From the NCBI GenBank assembly GCA_963760125.1, contig CAVXBV010000010.1:3342-67341 (forward strand): 64,000 bases of DNA. The letters run 5' to 3'. The notes below the pieces were generated by a model. That model was not told where the DNA came from. It was given only the letters and a program-made list of their open reading frames with translations, and did no database searches. Below are positions 12,474 to 28,973 of the stretch, piece after piece. The position numbers were made by a program, and so were the translations under genes. Source of the DNA: an uncultured Actinomycetota bacterium (GTDB taxonomy: Bacteria; Actinomycetota; Actinomycetes; Mycobacteriales; SCTD01). Every line of letters starts with the position of its first letter. Position 1 is the first letter of the stretch.

Positions 12474-14120
12474 ATGGTCCGCGTGGCCGCTGCCCAGTTC
12501 GCGACCGGACCCGACGTGGAGGCCAACCTCGCCACGGTCCTGCGCATGGTCGACCAGGCCGTCGCCGACGGCGCCGCTCTCGTCGTCCTGCCGGAGTTCT
12601 GCAACCACCCCAGCTGGTACGCCGACGGCGCCCACGCGTGGGAGGTGGCGTGCGACCTCGACGGGCCGTTCGTCACGGCGGTCGCCGAGAAGGCGCGCGA
12701 GACCGGCGCCTGGGTGATGCTGAACGTGACCGTGCGCCGGGAGCCCGGCCGGCTCACCGACACCAACGTGCTGCTCGACGCGAGCGGCGCGATCGTGGGC
12801 ACCAGCGACAAGCAGGTGCTCATGGGCGGTGAGCGCCTGCACATCAGCGAGGGGACGACCGACAGCCCGGTCCTCGACACGCCCTTCGGGCCGGTCGGCC
12901 TCTACAGCTGCATGGACGGCGTGATCTTCGAGACCCCGCGCATGCTCGCCGTCCGAGGTGCGCACCTGCTCCTCAACAGCCTCAACTCGTTCGCCCTCGA
13001 CGAGGCGTCGCTCCACGTCCCGGTCCGTGCCGCGGAGAACAAGGTCTGGGTGGTCGCTGCCAACAAGGTGGGCTACCTCATCCCGGACGGCACCCGGGAG
13101 CACGTCGCGTCTCAGCTCGGCATCGACCCGGAGTGGCTGCAGGGAGCTGGGGAGAGCCAGATCGTCGCCCCCGACGGCACCGTGGTGGCCATCGGTCCCC
13201 GGTATGGCGAGGCGGTCGTCGTGGCCGACGTCGATGTCTCGCTCGCGGCCGACAAGCGGCGTCCCGACGGCACCGACGTGATGGCCGCGCGACGGCCGGC
13301 GACGTACGCCCCGCTCGCAGCGGCTCCTCGTGGCATCTCCCAGCAGGCCGGTCCGGTCGAGGTGCTGGCCGCGGTCGTGACGGACCCGGCGGACGTCGGC
13401 AAGGCCGTCGCCGACGGTGCGCAGATCGTCGTGCTGCCCGAGCTGGCGCAGACCACGTCCGGGACCACGGACGACCCGGCTGCGCTGGCCGACGCCGCGG
13501 ACGACTTCCTCGCCGGCCTCCGCTGCGACGCGATCGTCGTCACGACCGTGATCCGCCGGGTCGGCGACGCCTTCGCGCATGTGGCCGTCGCCGTCGGTCC
13601 GGGCCTGGCCCACGAGCAGGTCGCCCTGCACGCCAGCGCCAGGCACCCGTGGGCGACGGTCCTGGCCGACGAGGTGTCCGTCGTCGCGACCGAGGTCGGG
13701 CGGCTCGCGCTGCTGGTGGGCGATGACCTGCTCTACCCGGAGGCCGCTCGGCTCGCGGCGATCGGCGAGGCGGAGGTCCTCGCGGCGCCGTACACCGCAC
13801 TGGAGGACTGGGAAGTGCGCGCGGGGCTCGTGGAGCGAGCCGCGGAGAACCGGGTGAACCTGGTGGCCGCGAGCCGCGTCACGGATGCCGGTCAGGGGGT
13901 CGTCATCGCCGCCCAACAGGACTTCACGCTGTGGACTCCCTGGGCGCGCGACTTCGACGGGACCATCAACTACCCGATCGTCCACGCGGCTCCGCGCGAC
14001 GGTGCGCCGCTCGTGGCGCCGGTGCACCCGGCGGCCACGGCGAACCGGTTCGTCAGTCGCGGCACCGACGTCGTCGACGGTCGTCCGTGGGCGCTTGCCT
14101 CGGTCCTCGCCGAGGGGTAA
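12474..14120 (+). CDS. Carbon-nitrogen hydrolase (nitrilase/amidase superfamily) with a duplicated domain
   Basis: N-domain has the E-K-C triad (LPEFCN, SDKQ, YSCMDG) and RAAENK. The second domain has LPEL and RAAENR but no catalytic Cys. Confidence 0.88.
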   Translation: MVRVAAAQFATGPDVEANLATVLRMVDQAVADGAALVVLPEFCNHPSWYADGAHAWEVACDLDGPFVTAVAEKARETGAWVMLNVTVRREPGRLTDTNVLLDASGAIVGTSDKQVLMGGERLHISEGTTDSPVLDTPFGPVGLYSCMDGVIFETPRMLAVRGAHLLLNSLNSFALDEASLHVPVRAAENKVWVVAANKVGYLIPDGTREHVASQLGIDPEWLQGAGESQIVAPDGTVVAIGPRYGEAVVVADVDVSLAADKRRPDGTDVMAARRPATYAPLAAAPRGISQQAGPVEVLAAVVTDPADVGKAVADGAQIVVLPELAQTTSGTTDDPAALADAADDFLAGLRCDAIVVTTVIRRVGDAFAHVAVAVGPGLAHEQVALHASARHPWATVLADEVSVVATEVGRLALLVGDDLLYPEAARLAAIGEAEVLAAPYTALEDWEVRAGLVERAAENRVNLVAASRVTDAGQGVVIAAQQDFTLWTPWARDFDGTINYPIVHAAPRDGAPLVAPVHPAATANRFVSRGTDVVDGRPWALASVLAEG

Positions 14121-14157
14121 GTTTCGCTCAGTAGATATACGTTCCACTGAGTGAAAC
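14121..14157. promoter_or_regulatory. Inverted repeat (12-bp arms) enclosing a degenerate operator
   Basis: GTTTCGCTCAGT-[AGATATACGTTCC]-ACTGAGTGAAAC, between the hydrolase stop and the RCCR-like start. Confidence 0.55.
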
Positions 14158-14170
14158 AGGGGCAGCAACC

Positions 14171-14968
14171 GTGGCGGAGACGATCAAGTCGGTCGCAGAC
14201 TTCGTGGCCGAGTCCGGGGAGACGATCGACGTCACGCCGGCGTACGAGGCCCTGTGGGCGCTGGTCGACGAGCTGACGCAGAAGGTCCAGAAGCGCTTCG
14301 CGCTGACGCGCGACGCGAGCACCGAGAAGTACGAGAGCTACACCGGCGACGGTCCGACCGGCACGATCCGCGGCTACTCCGGCCCCGAGATCGACTGGAT
14401 GATCCACTCCTGGATCGCCAACCCGAAGGCGTCCTTCACCAACATCCACCTGACGATCTGGCTCGGCCCGCAGGTCCGGGTGCCGCACTTCGGGCTCGCC
14501 TTCGGGACCTTCCCTCAGGTCTGGTGCTACCTCGACTACCTCCCGCGCGCTGACCTGCTGGTCGACCTCGACTACCTCGACACCTACTACGAGCCGCTGA
14601 ACGCCGAGCACCTGGACGTCCGCGCCCGCCCCGGCATCGACCCGTTCGTCAGCCACTCCCTGCACGTGCGGGAGTCGCTGACCAACACCTCGCACTGCTG
14701 GTCCTGCCTCGATCTCGAGCAGTCGCTCGCCCTGACCCGGGAGCTCGCGCACTCGCGCCTGGACCGGTGGCTGCAGTGGGTCGACGAGGCGCCGCTGGTC
14801 CCCGAGGACGAGCGGGCGGCGCTGCGCGCCCGTGACGAGGCGGTCCGCCGCAACATCGCCGAGCGCGACCCGGCCAACGTCATGGGCGTGAAGTACTTCG
14901 GCGAGCAGATGACCCAGGAGCTCGTGAAGACCCTCTGGGGCGGCGACCGCGCGCTGCCGCGACCGTGA
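14171..14968 (+). CDS. Red chlorophyll catabolite reductase-like protein (ferredoxin-dependent bilin reductase fold) 1
   Basis: IDWMIHSWI, LDYLPRADLLVDLDYLDTYYE and PFVSHSLHVR match RCCR-family segments as I recall them. Confidence 0.8.
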   Translation: MAETIKSVADFVAESGETIDVTPAYEALWALVDELTQKVQKRFALTRDASTEKYESYTGDGPTGTIRGYSGPEIDWMIHSWIANPKASFTNIHLTIWLGPQVRVPHFGLAFGTFPQVWCYLDYLPRADLLVDLDYLDTYYEPLNAEHLDVRARPGIDPFVSHSLHVRESLTNTSHCWSCLDLEQSLALTRELAHSRLDRWLQWVDEAPLVPEDERAALRARDEAVRRNIAERDPANVMGVKYFGEQMTQELVKTLWGGDRALPRP

Positions 14969-15945
14969 CGGTCCGCGCGGTCCACGCCGCTTGCACCGTC
15001 CCGACCAACCAGGCGCCGTACGACACGGTGCACCTGAAGGTCTTCTACCCGGCCGCGCCCACGGGCGACCTGGCGGAGAAGATGACCGGCGTCGTGGCGG
15101 CCGATGCTGCGCGGGCGCCGTACCCGGTGGTCGTGCTCTTCAACGGCATCAACGTCAGCGCGGACAGCTACCGCTGGCTCGCCGAGGACCTGGCCTCCCG
15201 CGGCTACGCCGTCGTGACGTTCACCTTCGTCGAGGAGGTGTTCGGGACCGGCGTCGCCGTCAGCCCGGGCATCGACGTCGAGATGATCAAGCCCGAGACC
15301 TTCGGCTCCGCCCCCAGCGGTACGGCGGTGCAGCCGGTCCTCGACGCGCTCGCCAAGCTCGGTGCTCCGCTCGAGGGCCTGCTCGACCTCGACCGCGTCG
15401 CCTTGGGCGGTCACTCCGGCGGCGGGACCGTCGTCCTGCAGTCGGCCAACCCGGCGTGGTTCCCGCAGGTCCGCGCGGTGTTCACCTACGGCGCCCACGC
15501 GATGGCCAGCACGATCCTGGGCTGGCCGGTCGGGCACGTCATGGACCTGTCCGACGACATCGCGGTCCTGCTGGCCACCGGCGAGTACGACGGCGTGATG
15601 GCGGCGAGCGCGGTGCGGTACGGCGAAGAGGGCGGCGTCGACCGCATCGACCCTGTCGAGCGCACCTTCGACCAGTCCTTTGCCGGCGGTCGTGGCGACG
15701 TGCACCACCTGGTGCTCAAGGGCGCCAACCACTTCACCGTGGCCCACCCGTTGGACCTCACCAGCGCCCGCGCCTTCCTCGACGAGCCGGCGACGGCGGA
15801 CGAGGACGTGGCCCGGGCGGCGCTCGCGGACGCGCTCGCGCTGTTCCTCGACGCGAGCCTGCGCGGCGAGGCCGCCGCCGCCGCGACCCTGACCAGCTGG
15901 ACCAGCGCGCCGCCGGACGCGGTGCTGAGCATGCGGAGCAAGTGA
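14965..15945 (+). CDS. Alpha/beta hydrolase (chlorophyllase/dienelactone-hydrolase-like)
   Basis: LKVFYPA, YRWLAEDLASRGY, GGHSGGG, GEYDG and GANHF give a complete Ser-Asp-His triad. Confidence 0.82.
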   Translation: MTVRAVHAACTVPTNQAPYDTVHLKVFYPAAPTGDLAEKMTGVVAADAARAPYPVVVLFNGINVSADSYRWLAEDLASRGYAVVTFTFVEEVFGTGVAVSPGIDVEMIKPETFGSAPSGTAVQPVLDALAKLGAPLEGLLDLDRVALGGHSGGGTVVLQSANPAWFPQVRAVFTYGAHAMASTILGWPVGHVMDLSDDIAVLLATGEYDGVMAASAVRYGEEGGVDRIDPVERTFDQSFAGGRGDVHHLVLKGANHFTVAHPLDLTSARAFLDEPATADEDVARAALADALALFLDASLRGEAAAAATLTSWTSAPPDAVLSMRSK

Positions 15946-15946
15946 C

Positions 15947-17137
15947 ATGAGTGCCCTGGACGACCTGCGTGTCATCGAGATGGGTCAGCTGCTCGCCGGC
16001 CCGTTCGCCGGCCAGCTCTTCGCTGACTTCGGCGCCGACGTGGTGAAGCTCGAACCGCCGGGCGTCGGTGACCCGATGCGCGAGTGGGGACGCGAGAAGC
16101 CGCACGGCAAGTCGCTCTGGTGGCCGATCGTCGCGCGCGGCAAGCGCTCGGTCACCTGCGACCTCCGCACTCCCGACGGCCAGCAGATCGTCAGGGACCT
16201 CGTCGCCAAGGCCGACGTGCTCATCGAGAACTTCCGTCCCGGCACGCTTGAGCGGTGGAACCTCAGCCCTGAGCTGCTCTGGGAGATCAACCCCAAGCTC
16301 GTCATCTTGCGGGTCAGCGGGTTCGGTCAGACCGGGCCCAAGTCCACGCAGGCCGGCTATGGCTCGATCGGCGAGGCCATGGGTGGTCTGCGGTACGTCA
16401 TGGGCGAGCCGGACCGCCAGCCGTCGCGGGCGGGCATCTCCATCGGCGACACCCTGGCGGCCATCTTCGCCACCCTCGGTGGCCTCATCGCCCTGCACGC
16501 GCGCGAGCGCACCGGCCGGGGGCAGGTCGTCGACTCCGCGATCTACGAGGCCGTCATGGCCGTGATGGAGTCGCTCATCACCGAGTTCGACGTGGTCGGG
16601 TACGTCCGCGAGCGCACCGGCGCGATCATCCCCAACGTCGCGCCGTCCAACGTCTACCCGACGGCCGACGGCGTCGGGGTCCTCATCGCCGGCAACCAGG
16701 ACACGGTGTTCAAGCGGCTCGCTCAGGCGATGGGCCGCCCAGAGCTCGGCGACGACCCGCGCTACGCCACGCACGCCGCGCGCGGCGCGACGCAGGAGGA
16801 GCTCGACGCCCTCATCGGCGAGTGGACCATCACCCTGGACTCCGCGAAGGTCATGGAGATCATGGAGGAGTACGGCGTCCCGACCGGCCTGGTCTACCGG
16901 GCCAAGGAAATGCTCGAGGACACCCACATCGCCGCGCGCGAGGCGATCGTGAAGATCGCCCACCCGATGTTCGGTGACATCCGGATGCAGAACACCTTCC
17001 CCAAGCTCTCCGACACCCCCGGGGAGATCCGCTGGGTCGGCCCGGAGCTCGGTGAGCACACCGACGTCGTGCTCGCCGACCTGCTTGGCTACGACGACGC
17101 GAAGGTCGACGCGCTCAAGGCCGCCGGGGTCGTCTAG
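15947..17137 (+). CDS. Class III CoA-transferase (CaiB/BaiF family)
   Basis: LAGPFAGQLFADFGADVVKLE, ENFRPG and SIGD motifs. Confidence 0.93.
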   Translation: MSALDDLRVIEMGQLLAGPFAGQLFADFGADVVKLEPPGVGDPMREWGREKPHGKSLWWPIVARGKRSVTCDLRTPDGQQIVRDLVAKADVLIENFRPGTLERWNLSPELLWEINPKLVILRVSGFGQTGPKSTQAGYGSIGEAMGGLRYVMGEPDRQPSRAGISIGDTLAAIFATLGGLIALHARERTGRGQVVDSAIYEAVMAVMESLITEFDVVGYVRERTGAIIPNVAPSNVYPTADGVGVLIAGNQDTVFKRLAQAMGRPELGDDPRYATHAARGATQEELDALIGEWTITLDSAKVMEIMEEYGVPTGLVYRAKEMLEDTHIAAREAIVKIAHPMFGDIRMQNTFPKLSDTPGEIRWVGPELGEHTDVVLADLLGYDDAKVDALKAAGVV

Positions 17138-17937
17138 TGCTCGACACGTCGCGGCTGGTCCACGCCCCCGGGGTGATGGACCCGGTGACCGCGCTGCTCG
17201 CGCAGCAGGCCGGCTTCGAGGTGCTCTACCTGTCGGGGGCGGTGGTCAGCGCCGTGGTGCTGGGTCGCGCTGACCTCGGGTTCGTCCACGGCAGCGACAT
17301 CGCCGCCCTCGCGGCGCGCATCACCGCCGTCGTCGACCTGCCTCTCGTCGCGGACGCCGACACCGGCTACGGCGGCGTGCTCCAGGTCGCGCGTACGGCG
17401 GAGGCCTACGCGCGGGCGGGGGTGACCGCGATGCAGATCGAGGACCAGGTGTCGCCCAAGCGCTGCGGTCACCTGGCGGGCAAGGAGATCCTGCCTCTCG
17501 GTGAGGCCGTGGCCAAGGTGCGCGCCGCCGTCGACACCGGCGCGGTGCAGGTCATCGCGCGGACCGACGCGCTCTCGGTGCACGGGCTGGACGAGGCGCT
17601 GCGTCGCGCCGCCGCCTACGCCGAGGCCGGTGCCGACCTGGTCTTCGTCGAGGGGGCCGCGGGGGGCGTGGACCTCGATCACCCGCAGGTGCTCAACCGT
17701 TCCGAGGCAGGGGGGGACCGCCCGGTCGTGCCCGACGACGAGCTGTTCGCCGGCGGGGTCCGCCTGGTCATCCACCCCGTGTCCGCCCTCGTCGCGATGG
17801 CCCAGGCGGCCCAGCAGACTTACGCCGCGATCGCGGCAACGGGCTCGGCGCAGTCGGTCCCCCGGATGTCGTGGCCCGTGCTCACCGACCTGCTCGGACA
17901 GGGCGAGGACCTTGCCCGCGAAGGGACCTACGCATGA
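17137..17937 (+). CDS. Isocitrate lyase/PEP mutase family C-C lyase (methylisocitrate/dimethylmalate lyase-like)
   Basis: DADTGYG, IEDQVSPKRCGH and IARTDA motifs. Confidence 0.9.
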   Translation: MLDTSRLVHAPGVMDPVTALLAQQAGFEVLYLSGAVVSAVVLGRADLGFVHGSDIAALAARITAVVDLPLVADADTGYGGVLQVARTAEAYARAGVTAMQIEDQVSPKRCGHLAGKEILPLGEAVAKVRAAVDTGAVQVIARTDALSVHGLDEALRRAAAYAEAGADLVFVEGAAGGVDLDHPQVLNRSEAGGDRPVVPDDELFAGGVRLVIHPVSALVAMAQAAQQTYAAIAATGSAQSVPRMSWPVLTDLLGQGEDLAREGTYA

Positions 17938-19085
17938 TCCTCGTCGCCGGAGCGGGCCCCGTCGGGCTCACCGCGGCGCTCGTCCTCGCCCGTCGCGGCC
18001 ACGCCGTGACGGTGCTCGAGGCCGGTCCGGACCTCGCCACCGAGAGCCGCGCCTCGACGTTCCACCCGCCGTCGCTGGAGATGCTCGCCGACCTCGACGT
18101 GCTCGAACCCCTGCTGGCTATGGGGATCACGTCGACGACGTTCCAGTACCGCGACCGGTCGGGCGGTGTCATCGCCGACCTCGACCTGTCGGTGCTGGCC
18201 GACGACACGGCGTACCCCTTCCGGGTGCAGTGCGAGCAGAGCCGCCTGACTCCGATCCTGCGCGAGGCGCTGCTCGGGCACGAGGGCTGCACGATCATGT
18301 ATGACGCCCGCGTGACCGACGTCGAGCAGACGGCGACCGGTGTCCGCGTGACGGCAGGCTCGGTGCACGAGGGCGACTGGCTGGTCGGGGCTGACGGCGC
18401 GTCGTCGATGGTGCGCAAGTCGCTCGGGTTGGCGTTCGAGGGGCTGACCTACCCCGAGCGGTTCCTGGTCGTGTCGACGCGGGAGGACCTCGAGCAACTG
18501 CTGCCCGGCATCGCGGCGGTCAACTACGTGTTCGACCCCGACGAGTGGCTGGTGCTGCTCAAGACGCCTGATCACTGGCGAATCCTGTTCCCGACCGACC
18601 CCGACTCGCCGGACGAGGTCGAGACGGCCCGCGTGCACGAGAGGCTGGGCGGTGTCGTCGACCTCGGCCGGGACTGGGACGTCCTGCACACCTCGCTGTA
18701 CAACGTGCACCAGCGCGTCGCGTCGTCGTTCCGCGTCGACCGCGTGCTGCTCGCCGGGGACGCCGCCCACGTGAACAACCCCCTCGGTGGCATGGGGATG
18801 AACTCCGGCCTGCACGACGCCGTCGCACTCGCCGGGGCGCTCGCCGACCTGCTGGAAGGCGGGCCGGACCTGCTGGACGACGTGGCAGCGCGCCGCCGCT
18901 GGGTCGCCACCGACTACGTCAAGACGCAGACCCACGGCAACTGGGAGCAGATCCGCGAGCGCGACCCGGAGGCGCGCGCGGCGTTGCACGAGGTGCTCCG
19001 TGCGCGCGGCGCGGATCCTGTGGCGATGCGGGACTACCTGCTGACGACGTCGATGATCGACTCGCTGCGGACCGTCGTCCGGTGA
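17934..19085 (+). CDS. FAD-dependent monooxygenase (PHBH-like family)
   Basis: GAGPVG, GADGASS and LLAGDAAHVNNPLGGMGMNSG motifs. Confidence 0.9.
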   Translation: MILVAGAGPVGLTAALVLARRGHAVTVLEAGPDLATESRASTFHPPSLEMLADLDVLEPLLAMGITSTTFQYRDRSGGVIADLDLSVLADDTAYPFRVQCEQSRLTPILREALLGHEGCTIMYDARVTDVEQTATGVRVTAGSVHEGDWLVGADGASSMVRKSLGLAFEGLTYPERFLVVSTREDLEQLLPGIAAVNYVFDPDEWLVLLKTPDHWRILFPTDPDSPDEVETARVHERLGGVVDLGRDWDVLHTSLYNVHQRVASSFRVDRVLLAGDAAHVNNPLGGMGMNSGLHDAVALAGALADLLEGGPDLLDDVAARRRWVATDYVKTQTHGNWEQIRERDPEARAALHEVLRARGADPVAMRDYLLTTSMIDSLRTVVR

Positions 19086-20492
19086 TCACCCGGGAGAACC
19101 CGGCGCGTCCGTCGGAGATCGTCGGACAGGTCGCGATCACGACCGACGTGGCGGCGACGGTGGGTCGCGCTGATCGGGCGCAGCGTGCGTGGGCGCTCGT
19201 CCCGTTGTCGGAGAGGTCCGAAGCGGTGGCTGCCGCCCTCGCGCCGTTGGAGCCGCGGCTCGACGACCTCGCGGAGCTGCTGGCTCGCGAGACCGGCAAG
19301 CCGCTCACCGACAGCCGTGGCGAGCTGGGCTTCTCCCTCGCCTACGGCCGCTGGGCGTGTGCGCGCTCCGAGGTGCTGCAGGACGCGCTGCTCGACGATG
19401 CCGGCGGACGGCTGGCGCTCCGGCGGGTGCCGTACGGCGTCGTCGCTGCCGTGACCCCCTGGAACGCCCCGGTCATCCTCACGCTGCTGAAGGTCGTGCC
19501 CGCTCTCATCGCCGGGAACGCGATCGTCGTGAAGCCCTCCCCGCTGGCGCCGTTCGCCGTGTCCGAGGTGCTGAGGTTGCTGGCGTCCGGACTGCCCCAG
19601 AACCTGGTCGCCACGGTGCATGGAGGCGCCGAGGTCGGCGCGGCGCTGATCGGGCACGCCCGGGTGCGCAAGGTCGCGTTCACGGGGGGCGAGGCGACCG
19701 GCCGGGCGATCGCCCACGCCGCGGCCGACCGGTTGATCCCCGCGGTGCTCGAGCTCGGGGGCAACGATCCCGCGGTCTTCCTCGGCGACGCGGACCTGCG
19801 CGACGAGGCGATGGACCGGCTGGTGATGGCCTCGTTTGCGACCGCCGGCCAGGTGTGTATGGCGGCCAAGCGCCTCTACGTCCACCGGTCGATCGCCGAC
19901 TCCTTTGTCGAGTCCTATGTCGCCGCAGCGGCCCGGGTCCTGGTGACCGGCGACCCACTCGAGAGCCGGCGTGACGATGGGCCCGGTCGTCACCGCCGAG
20001 GCGGCCACGCGCGTGCGGGGGCTTGCTCGGTCGAGGGGACGGCGCACGCCTTGGGTTCGCTGCGCGACCTGGGCGACGGCTACTTCGTCCCGCCCGTCCT
20101 GGTGACCGGGCGTGGCGGACGACGCGCCGCTCGTGGCGACCGAGCAGTTCGGCCCCGCCGTACCCCTGCTGGTCTTCGACGACGAGGACGAGGTCGTCGG
20201 CCGCGCTAACGCCGGGGAGCTCGGGCTGGGCGCGAGCGTGTGGTCCCGCGACGAGGAGCGCGCTTTTGCCCTCGCCTCGCGGATCGAGGCGGGGTTCGTG
20301 TTCGTCAACACGCACAACCGCACCGGCATGGCGCTGCGCGCGCCGTTCGGTGGGGTGAAGTCCAGCGGCTACGGCCGCGAGTACGGCGACGAGGGCCTGC
20401 TCGCCTACACGCAGACCTGCGTCACCCATGCCCCCGCGCCGTTCCGGGCCGGCGGTGCCGGGTCAGGCGCGAGCGCCTACCCGACCGGCTGA
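19082..20492 (+). CDS. Aldehyde dehydrogenase, frameshifted (probable sequencing indels or recent pseudogene)
   Basis: PWNAP, FTGG, ELGGND and GQVC lie in the first frame; EQFGP and PFGGVKSSGYGRE lie in another. Breaks occur around 19965-20110. Confidence 0.85.
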
Positions 20493-20511
20493 GTGGCCCC
20501 CCCGGGAACGA

Positions 20512-20548
20512 CGAAGCCGGGGTGGCCGCAACGGCCACCCCGGCTTCG
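20512..20548. terminator. Bidirectional GC-rich hairpin between convergent genes
   Basis: CGAAGCCGGGGTGGCCG-caa-CGGCCACCCCGGCTTCG, a perfect 17-bp stem. Confidence 0.8.
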
Positions 20549-20560
20549 GAGCCCTGAGTG

Positions 20561-21196
20561 CTACTTGCCGTAGACGTAGGCCCCATCGCCGGCAGCCTCG
20601 TCGATCTGGGGAACCGTCACCGCCACGCCGCTGAAGCGAGTGTGGCCGGACAGGCTCTCGATCGCCGTCCCGTTCTTGACCGCCTTGGGGATCAGCGACA
20701 CCGGCACCGTCCAGGTGATCGTCTTGTCCTTGACCGTGATGCTGTCGAGCTTGACCGACTCCGAGGTGGACGTGGCACTCGCCTGCGTGTAGCCAGGGCA
20801 GTTGTGCTGCAGGGTCTGCGTGTCAGTGCCGCTCGCTGGCTTGGTGTAGTTCAGCCAGAACGTCGAGCAGTCCGCAGTCGCTGTCGTGACGCGGTAGATG
20901 GTCCCTGCGGCCGGTGCTCCCGCCAGGGTCATGGTGACGCTGAAACCCGTGGGCTTGGATGCCGTGCCGGTGGTCGTCCACGAGATGCTCACGATGTCGC
21001 CGCCGCTGTAGCTCGACGGGGTGGCCGTGCCCGGCAAGTCCTCGAAGCCCTGACCGTTGAGCCCGTTGCCGTCACCGGCCGGGTCGGTGATCGTGACGGC
21101 CTTGAAGGCAGGGGCGGCGGCCTGCGCGCTCGCACCGGCGGCGAGCGCCAGAGCGGTCACAGCAACGGCACCGGAACGGACGAGGGATGAGCGCAT
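20561..21196 (-). CDS. Secreted hypothetical protein
   Basis: Signal peptide MRSSLVRSGAVAVTALALAAGASAQA; ITDPAGD motif; Thr-rich beta-type sequence; GGAG RBS. Confidence 0.75.
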   Translation of the reverse strand: MRSSLVRSGAVAVTALALAAGASAQAAAPAFKAVTITDPAGDGNGLNGQGFEDLPGTATPSSYSGGDIVSISWTTTGTASKPTGFSVTMTLAGAPAAGTIYRVTTATADCSTFWLNYTKPASGTDTQTLQHNCPGYTQASATSTSESVKLDSITVKDKTITWTVPVSLIPKAVKNGTAIESLSGHTRFSGVAVTVPQIDEAAGDGAYVYGK

Positions 21197-21291
21197 GCTG
21201 GTCTCCTGCGGCTGGGTGAGGTGATGAACGGGGATTCGCGATCTCGCGGGCAATTCCTGCCCGTCCGGAGGGACGAGTTTCGCGACGTCTG

Positions 21292-22185
21292 CTACTGGTA
21301 GCTGGGCTCGGTCCAGGGACCGATCGAGCGGGAGCGGACCGGCTCGATGAAGCGGGGCGCCGCGCTGTGCGGGTAGCCGTCGCCCCAGTTGGTGGGCGTG
21401 CCGTTCATCTCGACGCTCGCGTCGTCGGTGTACCAGTCGACGAGGTCGCTGTCGGACCGGACGATCCACGTGCAGCCGAGCTCGGCGTCGGCGGTGAAGT
21501 CTCCGTGGCGGATGAGGGCCGGGCGCCAGAAGTACGTGCCCGGCCACATCTTGCCGTAGTTGTAGTCGAAGCCGCCGGCGAGGCAGTAGGCCTCCTCGCT
21601 GCACGGGTGGTGCGCCAGCGGCTTCTCGACCCAGCCCGGCTTGGCCTTGATGAGCCGGCTGTAGAAGCCGGTCTTCTCGTCGCGGTGCAGCATCTTGATG
21701 TAGAGGCCAGGCACCGGCGTGCCGCCGAGGTCAAAGCGCATGGGACTGCCGTCCTTGACGTCGATCCACGGCATCTCTGCGGTGTTGAGAACGATGAGCC
21801 TTTGGTCCTCGCGCACCGACGTCAGCGACTCGTCCGCGGGCGTGAAGCCCCAGTCGCCGAACTCGCGGTACAGCAGCACCTCGGTGCCGGCCGTCACAGT
21901 GATCGCCGGGGTCCACACGCCGATCGGCGCGTGCCAGTAGCCCTCGGCGCCGAGCACGGTGTCGCCGATCGTGACGGACCCCGAGAGCACGAGCCACTCC
22001 GTCTCGGCGACGTGCACGCCCGCGGGGCGGGACCAGTCGCTGGTGAAGCGGACCTTGACCGACGCGGAGCCGTCCTCCTCGTCGTAGGAGAGGTTGCGCT
22101 GCTCCGCGGTACCTGTGGCATGCGCGAACTCGGCGAGGTGCCAGATCAGGTCTCGCTCGTCCACCAGCTCGACATGGGGGCGCAT
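21292..22185 (-). CDS. Bicupin protein (DUF4437/ChrR-like)
   Basis: Two cupin motifs: GVHVAETEWLVLSG and HHPCSEEAYCLAG...YFWRPALIRHG. Confidence 0.75.
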   Translation of the reverse strand: MRPHVELVDERDLIWHLAEFAHATGTAEQRNLSYDEEDGSASVKVRFTSDWSRPAGVHVAETEWLVLSGSVTIGDTVLGAEGYWHAPIGVWTPAITVTAGTEVLLYREFGDWGFTPADESLTSVREDQRLIVLNTAEMPWIDVKDGSPMRFDLGGTPVPGLYIKMLHRDEKTGFYSRLIKAKPGWVEKPLAHHPCSEEAYCLAGGFDYNYGKMWPGTYFWRPALIRHGDFTADAELGCTWIVRSDSDLVDWYTDDASVEMNGTPTNWGDGYPHSAAPRFIEPVRSRSIGPWTEPSYQ

Positions 22186-22267
22186 GGTCTCTCCTCGATC
22201 GGGGCCGCTTATCCGATACGGAACGTACTGCTATCTGATTAGCAGCACAAGATGTACCGTCAATGCC

Positions 22268-22834
22268 GTGACCAGACCCGGGCGTCCCGCTGGCCCCACC
22301 GCCGAGACCGCCGTCGTCGTGCTGACCGCAGCCCTCGACCTGCTGCTCGCTGAGGGGGTGGGAGCGCTGACGCCCCAGCGGCTCCACACCGCGAGCGGGG
22401 TGTCGCGCTCGACGGTGTACCGGCACTGGCCGACCGCTCACGCGGTGCTCGAGGCGCTCGTGGACGTCGCGCCCGAACGCCCGCACCCGCCGACCGGTGA
22501 CCTTGCTCTAGATCTCCACGAGCAGGTCGACGTGCTGTGCAACCGCCTGCGGGACAAGCCGGTGGCGGCGTTCCTGCAGGCCCTCGTCGCCGCGTCCGCC
22601 TCAGACCCGGACGCTGCGGAGCTCCGGCGGAGGTACGTCGGAGACCTGCTGGCGCCGTTCGACCAGGCTCTGCGCGCCGGGGGTGTGAGCCGGCAGGGCC
22701 AGCGCGACGAGATCGTCGCCGTGCTCGTCTCGCCGCTGCTGCTTGACGCGCTGCTGCTCGACAAGCCCACGGCCCGTACGCGCGCCCACCGACTGGTCGA
22801 CGACGCGCTCGTCGGGTTGGAGGTGCCCCGATGA
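22268..22834 (+). CDS. TetR/AcrR family transcriptional regulator
   Basis: AALDLLLAEG...SGVSRSTVYRHWP helix-turn-helix. Confidence 0.9.
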   Translation: MTRPGRPAGPTAETAVVVLTAALDLLLAEGVGALTPQRLHTASGVSRSTVYRHWPTAHAVLEALVDVAPERPHPPTGDLALDLHEQVDVLCNRLRDKPVAAFLQALVAASASDPDAAELRRRYVGDLLAPFDQALRAGGVSRQGQRDEIVAVLVSPLLLDALLLDKPTARTRAHRLVDDALVGLEVPR

Positions 22835-23574
22835 CGAACCGGGTAGGGCCGCGCGCCGTGTTCGGGGTCATCGTTCCGAGCACCAACACCGTCGTCGAGC
22901 ACGACTACTGGAGGGCAGGGGTCGACGGGATCGCCTATCGCGCCGGCTCCATGCACATCCCGAACCCCGTGATGAACGACGACGAGGGCTTCGAGGCGCT
23001 CCTCGGCCAGATCCGGGCCTCGATCGACACAGCGGTGCGCGACGTGCTGACCGCGGAGCCCGACCGGATGGTCATGGGCATGTCGGCCGAGACGTTCTGG
23101 GGCGGGATCGAGGGCAACGCAGCCTTCGAGCAGCGGCTTAGGGACCGCACCGGCCTGCCGGTCACGACCGGCGCGAGCTCCTGCCGTGCCGCTCTCCACG
23201 AGCTCGGCTGCCGCCGGATCGCCGTCTTCTCGCCGTACCAACCGGTGGCGGACCGCGAGGTGGGTCGCTTCTTCACCGAGGCGGGGTTCGTCGTTGAGGC
23301 GATCACCGGCCTGCGGTGCCCGACCGCCATGGACATCGCCAAGGTGCCGGACGATCGACTGCTCGACGTCGTCGCCGAGATCGACTCCCCGGACGTCGAC
23401 GCGATCGTGCAGGTGGGCACGAACCTGTCCTTCGTCGCCCTGGCCGATCGGCTCGAGGCTGTGCTCGAGAAGCCCGTCATCGCCATCAACAGCGCCACCC
23501 TGTGGTCGGCCCTGCGCGAGCACGGGTTCGACGACCGGGTCGAGGGTGCGGGGCAGCTCCTCCGCGAGCACTGA
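22831..23574 (+). CDS. Maleate isomerase/arylmalonate decarboxylase (Asp/Glu racemase superfamily) protein 1
   Basis: GVIVPSTNTVVE, FSPYQP, GTNL and KPVIAINSA motifs. Confidence 0.85.
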   Translation: MTNRVGPRAVFGVIVPSTNTVVEHDYWRAGVDGIAYRAGSMHIPNPVMNDDEGFEALLGQIRASIDTAVRDVLTAEPDRMVMGMSAETFWGGIEGNAAFEQRLRDRTGLPVTTGASSCRAALHELGCRRIAVFSPYQPVADREVGRFFTEAGFVVEAITGLRCPTAMDIAKVPDDRLLDVVAEIDSPDVDAIVQVGTNLSFVALADRLEAVLEKPVIAINSATLWSALREHGFDDRVEGAGQLLREH

Positions 23575-23588
23575 GCTGGTCAGGGATC

Positions 23589-23629
23589 TTGACCATCCGG
23601 CCGTGTTCCGCTTAGCGTGACAGCGTTCC
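23589..23629 (+). promoter_or_regulatory. Internal promoter TTGACC-N18-TAGCGT with an overlapping degenerate operator (GTGAC-AGC-GTTCC)
   Basis: Same -10 hexamer as the promoter at 28997; GTTCCGCT occurs twice. Confidence 0.55.
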
Positions 23630-23641
23630 GCTAACGAGGAG

Positions 23642-24445
23642 ATGCGCGTGCCGGTCAGCCAAGAGGTCAAGACGATCACCCAGATGCTCGACGAGGCGCC
23701 GGACGTCGACGTCCGAGCGAGCTGGGAGTCCCTGTGGGGCATCCTCACCGAGCTCAAGGACCGCATCGCGGCGGAGTTCGACATCGCCCCGCACCCGAGC
23801 ACGGCCGATCACGCCTACTACGAGACCGGCGGGTTCGAGGGCTCCCTCAACGCCTTCACCGGGCCGGAGGCGGAGTGGGTCGTCCACTCGTGGATCGGCA
23901 ACCGGAGCGCCTCGATCCTGGACATGAACATCACCGTCTGGCTCGGCCCGCAGATCGACGCTCCGCACCTGTGCCTGGTCTTCGGCACCGTCCCGCACCT
24001 GTTCCACTACAGCGACCTCATCGCGCGCCGCGACCTCGCGACCGACCTCGACCACCTCAACCGCTACTACGAGCCGGAGAACGCCGACTACCTCGCCTTC
24101 CGCGGCGACGAGCGCTTCACCTGGTCGGTCAGCCACGGCTCCTACATGCGCGCCGTCACCTCCCCGGTCGCGCACTCCTACATGGCCGAGCGCACGCCGG
24201 AGAACATCGAGGTGCTCCGGGGGTACGTCATGAAGCGCTTCGAGCGTTGGCTCGAGTACGTCCGCAACGCGCCTGCCGTACCGCCGGAGGAGCGGGACGC
24301 GCTGCGCGCCCGCGACCACGAGCTGCGGCGCAACTGCTACCAGCTCGACCCGATGAACGCCCTCGCCGCCCGCGCCATGGGAGAGGACACCGTCGCGACG
24401 ATGGTGGCTCTCCGCTCGGGCGAAGCCCAGATGGCAGGCCAGTGA
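23642..24445 (+). CDS. Red chlorophyll catabolite reductase-like protein 2
   Basis: Colinear paralog of 14171: EWVVHSWIG, ITVWLGPQIDAPH, DLIARRDLATDLDHLNRYYE and LRARD. Confidence 0.8.
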   Translation: MRVPVSQEVKTITQMLDEAPDVDVRASWESLWGILTELKDRIAAEFDIAPHPSTADHAYYETGGFEGSLNAFTGPEAEWVVHSWIGNRSASILDMNITVWLGPQIDAPHLCLVFGTVPHLFHYSDLIARRDLATDLDHLNRYYEPENADYLAFRGDERFTWSVSHGSYMRAVTSPVAHSYMAERTPENIEVLRGYVMKRFERWLEYVRNAPAVPPEERDALRARDHELRRNCYQLDPMNALAARAMGEDTVATMVALRSGEAQMAGQ

Positions 24446-25287
24446 TGCGCGTCCTCGTGCTCGGCGCCGGCCTGGTCGGCCGCGAGCTCTCCGAGCGCCT
24501 GCTGAGCGACGGCCATGAGGTCGTTGCCACCACCACGACCGAGGCCAAGGTCCCGGATCTCGAGCAGGTCGCGACCGAGGTCCACGTCCTGCGGGGCTCT
24601 GACACCGACGCGGTGGCCAAGGCTGCCGTGGGTGCGGACGCTGTGGTCGTGTGCGTCGGGCCCGATGCCCGGCGAGCCATGACGCCCGAGGAGCGCGCCG
24701 CGACGTACGACGAGGTGCTGGTGCAGACGGCCCGCAGCGTCGTCGCTGCCGTGCCGCGGGAGGCGCGGATCGTCGCGTTGTCGAGCCTGAGCGTGTACGG
24801 CGATGCGGCCGATGCCCTCGAGGTCGTCACCGAGGACGCGCCGCTGACCGCGGACGACGACGCCAGCCCGCAGAAGTTCCAGGAGATGGAGCAGATCTAC
24901 CTCGGCCGCGGCAACGCCGTGGTCTTCCGGTGCTCGGACATCTTCGGCGCCAACGACCCACCGATCGCGGACAAGGTCCGCTTCGCCCACACCGTCCTCA
25001 AGGGGTCGGTGCCGTTCAGCGCTGGCGCGCTGTTCTACCGGGTGCACGTGGACGACGTCCTCAGCGCGATCGAGCACGCGGTGACGCACGACCTGGACGG
25101 CGTCTACAACCTCACCCACGCCGACGTTCCCGCCAGCAACCAAGAGCGCTTCGACGCGATCAGCGCGGAGCAAGGTCTCCCTGCGCTCCAGTACCGCGAC
25201 GAGCTCAAGGCGCCGTCCCGCCCGATCAGCGTTTCCCGTCTCGCGGAAACCGGTTTCGCCACCTCACGCACGCCCGTGGAGCGCTGA
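24445..25287 (+). CDS. NAD(P)-dependent oxidoreductase (extended/atypical SDR)
   Basis: VLVLGAGLVG Rossmann motif, SSLSVYGD and RVHVDD; TGATG coupling. Confidence 0.85.
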   Translation: MRVLVLGAGLVGRELSERLLSDGHEVVATTTTEAKVPDLEQVATEVHVLRGSDTDAVAKAAVGADAVVVCVGPDARRAMTPEERAATYDEVLVQTARSVVAAVPREARIVALSSLSVYGDAADALEVVTEDAPLTADDDASPQKFQEMEQIYLGRGNAVVFRCSDIFGANDPPIADKVRFAHTVLKGSVPFSAGALFYRVHVDDVLSAIEHAVTHDLDGVYNLTHADVPASNQERFDAISAEQGLPALQYRDELKAPSRPISVSRLAETGFATSRTPVER

Positions 25288-25288
25288 C

Positions 25289-26071
25289 GTGAAGACCGCC
25301 GTCATCACCGGGAGCAGCCGCGGCATCGGCTTCGGCCTGGCGCGCGAGCTCATGGCCCGCGGCACCAACGTGGTCATCACCGGTCGGTCGCAGGAGACCG
25401 TCGACAAGGCCGTGGCCGAGCTCGGCGACTCCGAGCGCGTCCTCGGCATCGCCTGCGACGTCACCTCCGCCGCGTCGGTGCAGGGCCTCTGGGACGCCAG
25501 CACTGCCCGCTTCGGCCGCGTGGACCTCTGGATCAACAACGCTGGCACGACCACCAACCCGCTGCCGCTGTGGGAGGTCACGAGCGAGGAGGTCAAGCAG
25601 ACCGTGGAGACCAACCTGCTGGGCACCGTCTACGGGATGCAGGTCGCGATCCGCGGGATGCTCGCGCAGGGTGGCGGTCAGGTCTTCAACGTCGAGGGCA
25701 TGGGTTCCAAGGGAGAGATCCAGAAGGGCCTGCTGCCCTATGCCTGCACGAAAGCGGCTGTCGGCTACCTCGACAAGGCAGTGCTGAAGGAGCTCAAGGG
25801 GTCGAACGTCCAGGTCATCAGCGTGCGCCCCGGCATCAACGTCACCGAGCACCTCATGCACGGCAGCGAGCACCTCGGTGAGGAGCGGCTGGCCAAGACC
25901 AAGAAGGTCTTCAACATCTTGGGCGACCTGCCCGAGACGACCACGCCCTGGCTCGCCGACAAGATCCTGTCCACGACCAAGACGGGCACCAAGATCGCCT
26001 GGTTGAGCACCCCGAAGATCGCCTGGCGGTTCACCAAGGCGCCTTTCGTGAAGCGCGACCTCTTCGGGTGA
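25289..26071 (+). CDS. SDR oxidoreductase, chlorophyll b reductase (NOL/NYC1)-like 1
   Basis: TGSSRGIG, DLWINNAG, FNVEGMGSKG, YACTK, RPGINVTEHL and FNILGD motifs. Confidence 0.85.
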   Translation: MKTAVITGSSRGIGFGLARELMARGTNVVITGRSQETVDKAVAELGDSERVLGIACDVTSAASVQGLWDASTARFGRVDLWINNAGTTTNPLPLWEVTSEEVKQTVETNLLGTVYGMQVAIRGMLAQGGGQVFNVEGMGSKGEIQKGLLPYACTKAAVGYLDKAVLKELKGSNVQVISVRPGINVTEHLMHGSEHLGEERLAKTKKVFNILGDLPETTTPWLADKILSTTKTGTKIAWLSTPKIAWRFTKAPFVKRDLFG

Positions 26072-28902: not shown

Positions 28903-28919
28903 GCCAACAGTATTGTTCT

Positions 28920-28932
28920 GGAACACGGTTCC
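28920..28932. promoter_or_regulatory. Palindromic operator GGAAC-ACG-GTTCC
   Basis: Exact match to the motif in a divergent promoter region. Confidence 0.75.
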
Positions 28933-28973
28933 GACAAGTGGAACAAGCGCCCGTTTCGGCGGAGTCACCATCG

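Follow-up and report, generated by a model that had tools for sequence, protein, structure and literature searches.

[quoted passage not shown] They lie in an accessory supercluster of catabolic genes that spans ~37 kb (~3.9-41 kb of the window, which is the whole stretch of 64,000 nucleotides analysed) and holds three of the four FDBR-fold paralogs of the genome. The four RCCR relatives, an oxygenase and a set of breakdown enzymes point to an undescribed bacterial route that may consume pigment-like compounds. A described function for such a cluster was not found in the literature searched.

RCCR1, RCCR2 and their catalytic positions

The initial annotation had proposed two RCCR-like paralogs, and both ORFs proved to be open:
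14171-14968, + strand: RCCR1, RCCR-type FDBR-fold protein of 265 aa (PF06405, 57.4 bits; structure model)
23642-24445, + strand: RCCR2, paralog of RCCR1 in its own orthologous group (PF06405, 41.8 bits)

Both scores exceeded the Pfam cutoff of PF06405 (RCC_reductase; 24.9 bits), and a BLASTP alignment of 252 aa at 35% identity (E 3e-63) showed the two proteins to be true paralogs. GC3 was 0.97 for RCCR1 and 0.96 for RCCR2, and codon-position GC was typical for real genes in the window. The likelier start of RCCR2 is the GTG at 23648, 6 nt past GAGGAG; its database copy is 265 aa long, and its orthologs in Nocardioides, Mumia and Aeromicrobium showed 55-60% identity. Each of the colinear motifs noted earlier (HSWI, WLGPQ, PH, R.DL..DLD.L..YYE and LRARD) was present in both ORFs. 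The plant segments that had been named with them, IDFVIGSWI, LDLPHRKDLVLNPDYLKEYY and PYVSPSLFVR, were found in Arabidopsis RCCR chains and aligned to these motifs in the HMMER alignment.

RCCR1 had 485 homologs at E<=1e-3. The family profile matched AtRCCR (E 3e-17), GtPEBB (7e-8) and HY2 (0.006). The predicted structure of RCCR1 (pLDDT 91.7) gave AtRCCR as the top fold match (TM 0.69-0.77), followed by HY2, PebB, PebA, PcyA and PebS. The matches listed were all tetrapyrrole enzymes (RCCR, FDBRs and CPOX) except 8xqw_H and 8xks_P, two chains of the chloroplast Ycf2/Orf2971-FtsHi motor complex. Since the model matched RCCR and the FDBRs, its predicted fold is FDBR-like, as had been supposed. 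The genome holds four paralogs, more than had been counted before.

A check of the catalytic acidic residues, as suggested in the initial annotation, showed that RCCR1 and RCCR2 have lost the central beta-sheet acid. The residue at this position was Ala in 34/34 RCCR1-type and Val in 18/18 RCCR2-type rows (Ala/Val in 52/52), and Asp (D91) in 17/17 rows of the third paralog, RCCR3. The second Asp, at the GtPEBB Asp-219 position, was kept in all 52 RCCR1/2 rows and in all 17 RCCR3 rows (D214). H106, D222, R226 and D233 were invariant in 52/52 RCCR1/2 rows and aligned with FDBR pocket residues. GtPEBB Arg-215 was not conserved, and its RCCR1 counterpart is Ile229. The RCCR numbering is reportedly Glu154 and Asp291. 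Since they retain only the C-terminal Asp, RCCR1 and RCCR2 are, as judged from their sequences, not canonical FDBR or RCCR catalysts. The roles of FDBR/PebB catalytic residues are those given in the available part of PMC6755814.

The conserved supercluster

The genes on the RCCR1 side of the supercluster were as follows:
4852-6129, - strand: ACAD-fold oxygenase component (Pfam and NCBIfam)
6123-7166, + strand: flavin reductase (Pfam and NCBIfam)
7163-8596, + strand: aldehyde dehydrogenase (Pfam and NCBIfam)
12474-14120, + strand: tandem nitrilase-superfamily (CN_hydrolase) amidase (PF00795, 150 bits, two stretches; ORF open from 12009)
14965-15945, + strand: alpha/beta-hydrolase with GHSGG nucleophile elbow (sub-threshold Pfam matches only)
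15947-17137, + strand: family III CoA-transferase (PF02515, 413 bits)
17137-17937, + strand: ICL/PEP-mutase family lyase (methylisocitrate/2,3-dimethylmalate lyase-like)
17871-19085, + strand: FAD-dependent aromatic-type monooxygenase (PF01494, 179 bits)
19082-20492, + strand: aldehyde dehydrogenase with an assembly frameshift near 20107 (two ORFs, one with the N-terminal and one with the C-terminal part of Aldedh)
20512-20548, + strand: perfect 17-nt hairpin, terminating the first operon

In the translation read by eye, the second amidase domain is without the Cys motif. The sub-threshold matches of the alpha/beta-hydrolase included Chlorophyllase (21.4 bits, cutoff 26) and PETase. The intact L011 ortholog of the frameshifted aldehyde dehydrogenase aligned across the two frames. 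The canonical operon of other genomes places the genes at 4852-8596 directly upstream of the lyase gene.

The remaining genes, from the RCCR2 operon onwards, were:
22094-22834, + strand: TetR regulator, heading the RCCR2 operon with Amdase1 (Pfam)
22831-23574, + strand: Amdase1 (Pfam)
24445-25287, + strand: NAD(P)-binding Rossmann protein, an SDR of atypical or extended type, with a start that overlaps the stop of RCCR2
25289-26071, + strand: SDR1 (Pfam)
26068-26646, + strand: multi-pass membrane protein, the RCCR2-side gene after SDR1
26650-27471, - strand: CitE/RipC-like C-C lyase
27484-28971, - strand: FAD_binding_2 flavoprotein
29077-30711, + strand: lipoprotein, read as solute-binding protein (lipobox and Gly/Ser/Thr linker)
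31133-36084, + strand: pair of ABC transporter genes, branched-chain amino acid type (ABC_tran, BPD_transp_2)
36053-37231, + strand: alpha3-type Rieske non-heme iron oxygenase (Pfam Rieske and VanA_C), immediately 5' of RCCR3
37234-37953, + strand: RCCR3, divergent FDBR-fold paralog (tblastn E 7e-7; hhalign; both Asp positions kept)
37946-38881, + strand: unk311, double beta-barrel (lipocalin-like) protein (model fold)
38878-39651, + strand: SDR2, classical short-chain dehydrogenase (Pfam adh_short)
39579-40319, + strand: unk246, multi-pass membrane protein (six hydrophobic segments)
40199-41056, + strand: Amdase2, maleate-isomerase/arylmalonate-decarboxylase family (Pfam Amdase)

The Rossmann protein matched Epimerase (53.9 bits) and NAD_binding_10 (45.3 bits) in Pfam. 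Amdase1 and Amdase2 shared 56% identity, and SDR1 and SDR2 49%; the nearest solved chain to Amdase2 was the maleate isomerase 2xed (E 9e-10). The lipoprotein gave no family match in Pfam or NCBIfam, and none of the island proteins that were scanned passed an NCBIfam cutoff. No Pfam or PDB sequence match and no known family was found for unk311; its model (pLDDT 88.4) matched the folds of BFA1 (5yvf) and DUF3598 (2o62) with TM 0.56-0.68. RCCR3 had no direct Pfam or PDB match, and hhalign placed it against the RCCR1/2 profile with a probability of 98.6% (E 9e-16, 224 columns). The nearest solved chains to the Rieske protein were SxtDIOX/SxtT, NdmA/B and DdmC (best PDB match E 7e-35). Its translation, read by eye, shows the Cys-X-His...Cys-X-X-His cluster motif and the Asp-X2-His-X4-His iron motif; no PaO domain was found by domain search, and no reductase or ferredoxin component gene adjoins its gene.

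The supercluster recurs in a scatter of Actinomycetota, among them Nocardioides, Micromonospora, Actinoplanes and Acidimicrobiales, with cultured carriers such as Nocardioides alcanivorans and Actinoplanes italicus, and gene order is conserved across RCCR1-carrying loci. The host is a soil, non-photosynthetic actinobacterium. Within 10 kb of RCCR1 orthologs, RCCR3 was found in 76/80 loci, the Rieske oxygenase in 75/80 and unk311 in 74/80, counts that are not independent because the loci come from related genomes, were picked as best RCCR1 matches and in some cases end at contig ends. With the same reservation, the alpha/beta-hydrolase was present in 67 of the 80 loci, the CN_hydrolase amidase and SDR2 in 64 each, Amdase2 in 46 (median identity 76%), the FAD monooxygenase in 44, unk246 in 42, the ICL/PEP-mutase lyase in 41 and the family III CoA-transferase in 25, while the ABC importer (17/80) falls outside the conserved core. 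RCCR2 and RCCR1 orthologs lay 18-20 kb apart in 5/5 Nocardioidaceae genomes searched, and the Rossmann gene adjoined RCCR2 orthologs in 7/7 other genomes. The lipoprotein and ABC genes were found at the corresponding place in the superclusters of Nocardioides and Mumia, and the Nocardioides version also has an isochorismatase. The separate operons of the initial annotation hold in the window, where the hairpin closes the first one, but both operons belong to one conserved supercluster.

Natural fusions were also found. P0415 joins Rieske, VanA_C and an RCCR3-type domain, the last with 35% identity to RCCR3 (E 8e-36) and a weak Fe_bilin_red match. To our knowledge, Rieske alpha3 enzymes adjoining or fused to an FDBR-fold protein have not been described. 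In P0416, P0401 and P0467, FDBR-fold (RCCR3-type) domains are fused to Rossmann domains of the NAD(P) type, and the Rossmann protein beside RCCR2 was 53% identical to the P0416 N-domain (E 9e-104). A fusion of the P0416 type, encoded on a different contig of this genome, is the fourth FDBR-fold paralog.

Possible substrates and roles of the FDBR-fold proteins

We tentatively favour, at somewhat less than an even chance, an oxygenase-plus-reductase pathway for tetrapyrrole-derived compounds that is partly NAD(P)H-linked. Fold, homology, paralogy, linkage, fusions and residue patterns are established here; from them we infer the substrate class, reductase activity, electron donor and step order. 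The Rieske oxygenase would oxygenate or open a conjugated tetrapyrrole-derived substrate; candidates are macrocycles derived from chlorophyll or heme, bilins, phyllobilins and smaller pyrrolic fragments. The FDBR-fold proteins may then bind the product, which would be conjugated and reactive, and reduce specific C=C bonds in it, as plant RCCR does after PAO (pheophorbide a oxygenase). RCCR3, which has both Asp residues that serve canonically as proton donors, would partner the Rieske enzyme; RCCR1 and RCCR2, having lost the central acid, probably rely on invariant His (RCCR1 His79, His106). RCCR2 may act with the adjacent NAD(P)H-binding Rossmann protein, so that NAD(P)H and not ferredoxin would drive at least some of the reactions. 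Sequential or regiospecific reduction of a bilin by the paralogs, as proposed in the initial annotation, is a candidate scheme. Fragments could reach central metabolites through the amidase, alpha/beta-hydrolase, maleate-isomerase-like proteins, SDRs, aldehyde dehydrogenases, the methylisocitrate/dimethylmalate-lyase-like and CitE-like lyases and CoA-transferases.

Several data argue against a tetrapyrrole substrate. The Rieske enzyme lacks a PaO domain, and its solved relatives act on saxitoxin, methylxanthines and dicamba. Heme oxygenase was not found in the genome (91% complete) or among annotated neighbours, and a plant-type ferredoxin gene is absent from the window, the nearest Fer2 match lying beyond it on the same contig. 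The importer is of a type usual for small polar solutes, not whole tetrapyrroles; the central FDBR/RCCR acid is missing in RCCR1 and RCCR2; and the chlorophyllase likeness of the hydrolase is under the Pfam cutoff. The downstream enzymes would serve just as well to break down other N-heterocycles by a maleamate-type route.

In a second reading, which we consider less likely, the cluster degrades a small non-tetrapyrrole N-heterocycle or aromatic, perhaps along a maleamate-like pathway of the pyridine type, with the FDBR fold serving as a cofactor-less ene-reductase or isomerase on a small conjugated intermediate from the Rieske and flavin oxygenases. The Rieske relatives (small-molecule monooxygenases and demethylases), the importer type and the lost central acid would fit, as would three oxygenases, two aldehyde dehydrogenases, the nitrilase-type amidase, the alpha/beta-hydrolase, the maleate-isomerase-like protein and the Nocardioides isochorismatase. 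Such an enzyme set recalls nicotinate/maleamate pathway logic. However, the island proteins scanned stayed under the NCBIfam (equivalog) cutoffs of all known heterocycle pathways, every fold match listed for the RCCR1 model other than the two motor-complex chains is a tetrapyrrole enzyme, and 3-4 FDBR-fold paralogs with Rieske-FDBR fusions are hard to square with a simple monocyclic substrate.

The motor-complex chains and the missing acid of RCCR1 and RCCR2 also suit non-catalytic delivery, product-sequestering or scaffold subunits, with redox chemistry left to the Rieske oxygenase and Rossmann reductase, and the Rieske and Rossmann fusions agree equally well with accessory domains. We regard this as improbable in view of the invariant polar, pocket-aligned residues of RCCR1/2 and the two catalytic-position Asp of RCCR3. 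Synthesis of a bilin-type chromophore or pigment is more improbable still: at least two FDBR-fold genes per locus recall the PebA/PebB pair (available part of PMC6755814) and heterotrophs have active FDBRs, including pre-PcyA enzymes (available part of PMC10151467), but heme oxygenase was not found, the island has no phytochrome, globin or V4R partner, its surroundings (importer, lyases, CoA-transferases, aldehyde dehydrogenases) are catabolic, and Fe_bilin_red reached only 14.5 bits, far under its Pfam cutoff of 31.

Comparison with known systems

The unk311 model has the two-barrel architecture of BFA1 and DUF3598, with 8-12% sequence identity and no sequence-level match; BFA1, going by its entry title, belongs to the chloroplast and is not known to act on small molecules. 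The Rieske and VanA_C domains are common to the oxygenase and to the alpha3 enzymes SxtT/SxtDIOX, NdmA/B, DdmC and VanA, whereas here the gene is translationally adjacent to that of an FDBR-fold protein and fused to one in P0415.

The RCCR1 model shares the alpha/beta/alpha fold with FDBRs (PebA/PebB, HY2, PcyA, PebS and pre-PcyA of heterotrophs). RCCR3 has the Asp of the central beta-sheet as well as the second one described for PebB-type enzymes in the available part of PMC6755814. The locus differs from FDBR systems in the low Fe_bilin_red score, the heme oxygenase not found and the replaced Arg-215. In the FDBR trees in the available part of PMC10151467, 'RCCRs and related sequences' serve only as outgroup.

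The best sequence and fold match was plant RCCR (Arabidopsis RCCR/ACD2; PDB 2zxl, 3aga), of the same Pfam family. RCCR1 and RCCR2 have its C-terminal Asp position in common, but Ala or Val stands at its central Glu position, and the fold-alignment identity to the RCCR1 model was only ~21-25%. In the available part of PMC8219035, ring opening in plants falls to the Rieske enzyme PAO, with RCCR as its 'companion enzyme'; the genetic coupling of Rieske and FDBR-fold proteins here echoes that pair, although the Rieske partner has VanA_C in place of a PaO domain. In contrast with plant RCCR, the proteins described here belong to a non-photosynthetic host with 3-4 paralogs per genome, a catabolic operon and one NAD(P) Rossmann pairing.

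RCCR-like paralogs and their fold

The two reading frames that the initial annotation had taken for RCCR-like paralogs, RCCR1 and RCCR2, and a third, weaker paralog, RCCR3, lie at the following positions of the window.

14171-14968: RCCR1, 265 aa
23642-24445: RCCR2, 267 aa; likely start 23648
37234-37953: RCCR3, a weak paralog match (E 7e-7) in a tblastn search of the window with RCCR1 and RCCR2

RCCR1 and RCCR2 were both open reading frames, with a GC3 of 0.96-0.97 that is typical of genuine genes in this window (G+C about 71%), and they shared 35% identity across 252 residues (E 3e-63). Both exceeded the curated cutoff (24.9 bits) of the Pfam family RCC_reductase (PF06405): RCCR1 scored 57.4 bits and RCCR2 41.8. 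These data confirmed the proposed pair of RCCR-like paralogs; every motif that had been listed for them was found in both proteins, and the plant RCCR segments named at that stage occurred in the HMMER profile alignment with the Arabidopsis red chlorophyll catabolite reductase (AtRCCR). The bilin reductase family Fe_bilin_red (PF05996) matched RCCR1 with 14.5 bits, well under its cutoff of 31, and RCCR2 had no match to this Pfam family. A profile built from 12 members of the RCCR1/2 family matched AtRCCR chains over nearly their full length (E 3e-17), as well as the ferredoxin-dependent bilin reductases (FDBRs) GtPEBB (E 7e-8) and tomato HY2 (E 0.006).

An alignment of RCCR3 with 16 orthologs (A2) gave no match of its own in Pfam or the PDB. 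Compared with the RCCR1/2 profile by hhalign, it aligned across 224 columns with a probability of 98.6% (E 9e-16), and this profile-profile comparison is the sole tie of RCCR3 to the RCC_reductase family. A fourth paralog of 549 aa was found on another contig (L010:466-2115; also G000:C12 and L111:9826-11475), which joins an NAD(P) Rossmann domain at its N-terminus (NAD_binding_10, 43.1 bits) to a domain of the RCCR3 type (hhalign probability 100%, E 1e-40). In all, the genome encodes four paralogs of the FDBR fold, which fall into three subfamilies. Next to the fourth lay a divergent MarR regulator gene and a gene resembling nitronate monooxygenase, and a bacterial-like globin gene was about 4 kb away.

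RCCR1 was modelled with AlphaFold2 on an alignment of 52 sequences (A4), and the model had a pLDDT of 91.7 and a pTM of 0.90. In a Foldseek search of the PDB, the top nine chains were those of AtRCCR (E 1e-12 to 1e-10, TM 0.66-0.77), followed in order by HY2, PebB, PebA, PcyA, and PebS; the next two chains belonged to the chloroplast Ycf2/Orf2971-FtsHi motor complex, and coproporphyrinogen oxidase came last. Because AtRCCR and then the bilin reductases ranked first, the FDBR-like fold expected from the initial annotation held for RCCR1, which is predicted to form an FDBR-type alpha/beta/alpha sandwich. By homology, RCCR2 and RCCR3 probably share this fold.

The RCCR1, RCCR2, and RCCR3 families add new variants to the RCCR/FDBR group and form part of a catabolic system. 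Three new FDBR/RCCR-fold subfamilies are defined in this way whatever the substrate, and one of them is undetected by Pfam. Our literature search found no function assigned to actinobacterial RCCR-like proteins and no description of this cluster; in the accessible text of PMC10151467, 'RCCRs and related sequences' serve solely as an outgroup.

Catalytic positions and fused partners

The catalytic positions were read from HMMER and hhalign alignments comprising 52 RCCR1/2 rows and 17 RCCR3 rows. According to the available portion of PMC6755814, GtPEBB Asp-99 is the central beta-sheet Asp and Asp-219 the second Asp. A Glu of AtRCCR, chain residue 111, aligned with the central Asp, and this position was occupied by Ala110 in RCCR1-type rows (34 rows) and by Val in RCCR2-type rows (18 rows), being acidic in 0 of 52. 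The central Asp was kept in RCCR3 as Asp91 (17/17 rows). The second Asp, which corresponds to AtRCCR chain residue 248, was present in every row as D233 of RCCR1/2 (52/52) and D214 of RCCR3 (17/17), so that the Asp pair of FDBRs is complete in RCCR3 and represented by its second member alone in RCCR1 and RCCR2. The two AtRCCR acids would be Glu154 and Asp291 in the numbering reportedly used by Sugishima et al. (2010, J Mol Biol 402:879). The earlier interpretation, which placed the proteins in the FDBR fold and asked for a check of the catalytic acids, was borne out in part: the fold stood and the second Asp was invariant, but the central position was not acidic in any RCCR1/2 row. Whatever the substrate, the alignments argue for a central catalytic acid that is dispensable or replaced in two of the three subfamilies.

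Other residues were also conserved in the RCCR1/2 rows, namely His106, Asp222, and Arg226 (52/52 each) and His79 (51/52). In the RCCR1 model, His79 and His106 were located on central strands, and the segment from Asp222 to Asp233 on and just past the C-terminal helix; these two groups would lie on the pair of faces between which FDBRs hold the bilin.

Searched exhaustively with a profile of the RCCR3 family, the database yielded 302 representatives at E<=1e-3. The multi-domain proteins among them were as follows.

P0415: Rieske domain, VanA_C, and RCCR3-type domain
P0416: Rossmann domain and RCCR3-type domain
P0401: RCCR-like domain and NAD_binding_10
P0467: ankyrin and FYVE domains, RCCR3-type domain, and NmrA-like domain

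The last domain of P0415 shared 35% identity with RCCR3 (E 8e-36) and had a weak Fe_bilin_red match, and its Rieske part shared only 28% identity with the Rieske protein of the window. The Rossmann protein encoded next to RCCR2 (24445-25287) was 53% identical to the N-terminal domain of P0416 (E 9e-104). P0467 is a protein of 1286 aa that looks eukaryotic (ankyrin repeats, FYVE finger), with the RCCR3-type domain directly before the NmrA/NAD_binding_10 domain; from this architecture, the Rossmann-FDBR pairing would therefore occur outside bacteria as well.

The FDBR-fold paralogs are coupled to a Rieske oxygenase and a Rossmann protein, genetically and, in other organisms, physically as well. 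In functional terms, the fusions link the FDBR fold with a Rieske oxygenase and with a partner that binds NAD(P). From the fusions and gene adjacency alone, RCCR2 would be predicted to bind its Rossmann partner, and the RCCR2-Rossmann pairing together with the fusions suggests NAD(P)H as the electron donor for some members. No ferredoxin (Fer2) gene was found in the window, and four matches were found elsewhere in the genome. A kinship of the Rossmann partner with biliverdin reductase B found no support: its PDB matches were generic epimerase/SDR proteins and none was annotated as a biliverdin or flavin reductase.

Gene content and distribution of the island

The three paralogs of the window lie in an island of about 37 kb (about 3.9-41 kb of the window), with the following gene groups.

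4852-8596, upstream genes: ACAD-fold oxygenase component, flavin reductase, another aldehyde dehydrogenase
12474-20492, operon 1: tandem nitrilase-superfamily amidase, RCCR1, alpha/beta-hydrolase, family III CoA-transferase, methylisocitrate/dimethylmalate-lyase-like (ICL-like) protein, FAD monooxygenase, aldehyde dehydrogenase; terminated by a perfect hairpin
22094-26646, operon 2: TetR, Amdase1 (maleate-isomerase-like), RCCR2, Rossmann protein, SDR1, membrane protein
After operon 2, opposite strand: CitE/RipC-like lyase, flavoprotein
Then: lipoprotein and ABC importer of the branched-chain amino acid type
36053-41056, operon 3: Rieske oxygenase, RCCR3, unk311, SDR2, membrane protein, Amdase2

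The neighbourhood of the paralogs is catabolic. Operons 2 and 3 were alike in build, with 56% identity between Amdase1 and Amdase2, 49% between SDR1 and SDR2, and one multi-pass membrane protein in each, and the start of the Rossmann gene overlapped the stop of RCCR2. An NCBIfam scan of 21 island proteins gave none at the curated cutoff. The nearest relatives of Amdase2 were maleate isomerases, those of the ICL-like lyase were methylisocitrate and 2,3-dimethylmalate lyases, and those of the amidase were archaeal nitrilase-superfamily proteins. The Rieske protein was nearest to alpha3 monooxygenases and demethylases, and the chlorophyllase similarity of the alpha/beta-hydrolase was under the Pfam cutoff. 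No sequence family was found for unk311 (37946-38881); its model (pLDDT 88.4) was a tandem beta-barrel like BFA1 and DUF3598, and some database entries label its homologs lipocalin-like. Kinship of unk311 with the DUF1838 protein of the window was rejected (hhalign probability 0.3%). The aldehyde dehydrogenase at 19082-20492 was split into two overlapping reading frames. The intact ortholog of a close relative (L011) matched frame 2 as far as 20107 and frame 3 between about 19965 and 20486, so that the gene has a frameshift (pseudogene) or the assembly is wrong here.

Several other features were observed in the island. An AT-richer inverted repeat (12-nt arms, 11/12 complementary, 13-nt spacer) was seen by eye at 14121-14157, in the gap from the end of the amidase gene to the start of RCCR1, and is a possible operator; it was missed by a repeat search with seeds of 7 nt. 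The motif CGTTCCRCT, which is related to this repeat, was rejected as a shared operator upstream of RCCR1 and RCCR2, since its 3 matches against 1.29 expected were not significant (14 of 100 shuffles reached 3). A gene for an FG-GAP repeat protein (9467-11851, minus strand, 794 aa) lay between the ACAD, flavin reductase, and aldehyde dehydrogenase genes and the amidase gene, where it breaks an operon that is continuous in other genera; a counterpart was present in 1 of 80 compared loci (L011). At 31133-33262, a single protein has an MFS-like membrane domain (MFS_1 44-398) at its N-terminus, followed by an ABC ATPase domain (ABC_tran 484-627), an arrangement that is unusual in operons of Liv-type importers. 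Genes for DUF1838 and DUF4437 (ChrR-like cupin) proteins (3946-4848 and 21292-22185, both minus strand) flanked parts of the island; DUF4437 had a counterpart in L011 only, and DUF1838 in 0 of the 80 loci.

RCCR1 had 485 database relatives at E<=1e-3, and those with names were from Actinomycetota; RCCR2 formed a separate orthologous group. A scan of one genome per species gave 347 RCCR1 relatives, and the best 80 loci were compared with the window proteins.

Window genes at the best 80 of 347 RCCR1 loci (at most 10 kb on each side, some loci ending early at contig ends; tblastn matches at E<=1e-8 that span 50% of the query or more)
RCCR3: 76/80
Rieske oxygenase: 75/80
unk311: 74/80
Alpha/beta-hydrolase: 67/80
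CN-hydrolase: 64/80
SDR: 64/80
Amdase: 46/80
Aldehyde dehydrogenases: 45-46/80
FAD monooxygenase: 44/80
Membrane protein (unk246, 39579-40319): 42/80
Lyase (ICL-like): 41/80
ACAD-type: 32/80
CitE: 26/80
CoA-transferase: 25/80
Flavin reductase: 17/80
ABC permease: 17/80

The genes formed a single collinear operon in Micromonospora, Nocardioides, Mumia, Actinomadura, and Streptomyces, which in the window is split in two. In all five Nocardioidaceae genomes searched, the RCCR1 and RCCR2 orthologs shared a contig and were 18-20 kb apart, and the Rossmann gene directly followed RCCR2 in 7 of 7 other genomes. Of 22 further genomes from the same genus, many of which are incomplete, 2 had the trait, as did 2 of 300 others that were drawn from across the phylum and were each at least 90% complete. 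The RCCR supercluster is accessory and rare, yet conserved. In a Nocardioides supercluster (L102:4004-14044), genes for a sortase, a 768-aa protein of no family, and a neocarzinostatin-family protein (chromophore-binding type) lay between the main operon and RCCR2, the last adjoining an ABC importer; among the 80 loci, neocarzinostatin-family genes occurred in 10 and sortase genes in 7.

Substrate and comparison with the plant pathway

The substrate may be tetrapyrrole-derived, because the listed structural neighbours of RCCR1, the motor-complex chains apart, handle tetrapyrroles (for FDBR-fold enzymes, see the available text of PMC10151467). By analogy with plant RCCR and its Rieske oxygenase partner PAO, as presented in part of PMC8219035, the FDBR-fold paralogs would reduce conjugated intermediates made by the Rieske oxygenase, and the downstream enzymes appear to suit maleimide-, maleamate-, or dialkylmaleate-type fragments. 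A tentative and rather doubtful reading is that heterotrophic actinobacteria have a counterpart of PAO/RCCR with which they begin to mineralise tetrapyrroles from chlorophyll or heme for carbon and nitrogen. It would combine the Rieske oxygenase with three to four FDBR-fold reductases, of which some would take electrons from NAD(P)H via a dedicated Rossmann partner instead of from ferredoxin, and the substrates would be phyllobilins, bilins, or their pyrrolic fragments.

Several findings were counted against a tetrapyrrole substrate: no PaO domain and no heme oxygenase were found, the island had no ferredoxin gene, the importer was of a small-solute type and outside the conserved core, the central acid was lost in RCCR1 and RCCR2, and the chlorophyllase similarity was sub-cutoff. 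The heme oxygenase search, which covered the PF01126 type as distinct from IsdG/MhuD-type heme degraders, gave no match in the genome itself (91% complete) and matches in 3 of 14 genomes in a control search. A pathway for a non-tetrapyrrole heterocycle is a serious rival, against which stand the structural neighbours of RCCR1. Riboflavin/lumichrome catabolism was rejected, since its gene set, as given in part of PMC12746152, differs (P450, xanthine oxidase, alpha/beta Rieske dioxygenase).

To our knowledge, no enzyme fold other than that of the FDBRs is known to carry out cofactor-free reduction of linear tetrapyrroles. The turnover of chlorophyll and heme in nature is very large. Plant litter contains phyllobilins together with smaller pyrrolic products (PMC7318184). 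Our literature search found no paper on the way in which soil or marine bacteria mineralise them. The cluster, which is conserved and contains the FDBR fold, is a concrete and testable candidate for bacterial pigment mineralisation, and its carriers include the culturable genera Nocardioides, Micromonospora, Actinoplanes, and Catellatospora. If the tetrapyrrole reading is true, the cluster would represent the first bacterial route to be described for chlorophyll- and heme-derived pigments, which are very abundant, and would contain the first NAD(P)H-linked FDBR-fold enzymes. The recurrent fusions with Rieske and NAD(P) Rossmann domains predict partners that are new to the FDBR-fold class and perhaps also a new source of electrons, and the bacterial RCCR-like families bear on the origin of plant RCCR. 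In the PAO/RCCR system of plants, a Rieske oxygenase is coupled to RCCR. In the window, a Rieske oxygenase in which the domain search found no PaO domain adjoins RCCR3, the paralog whose type of domain is fused to a Rieske oxygenase in P0415.
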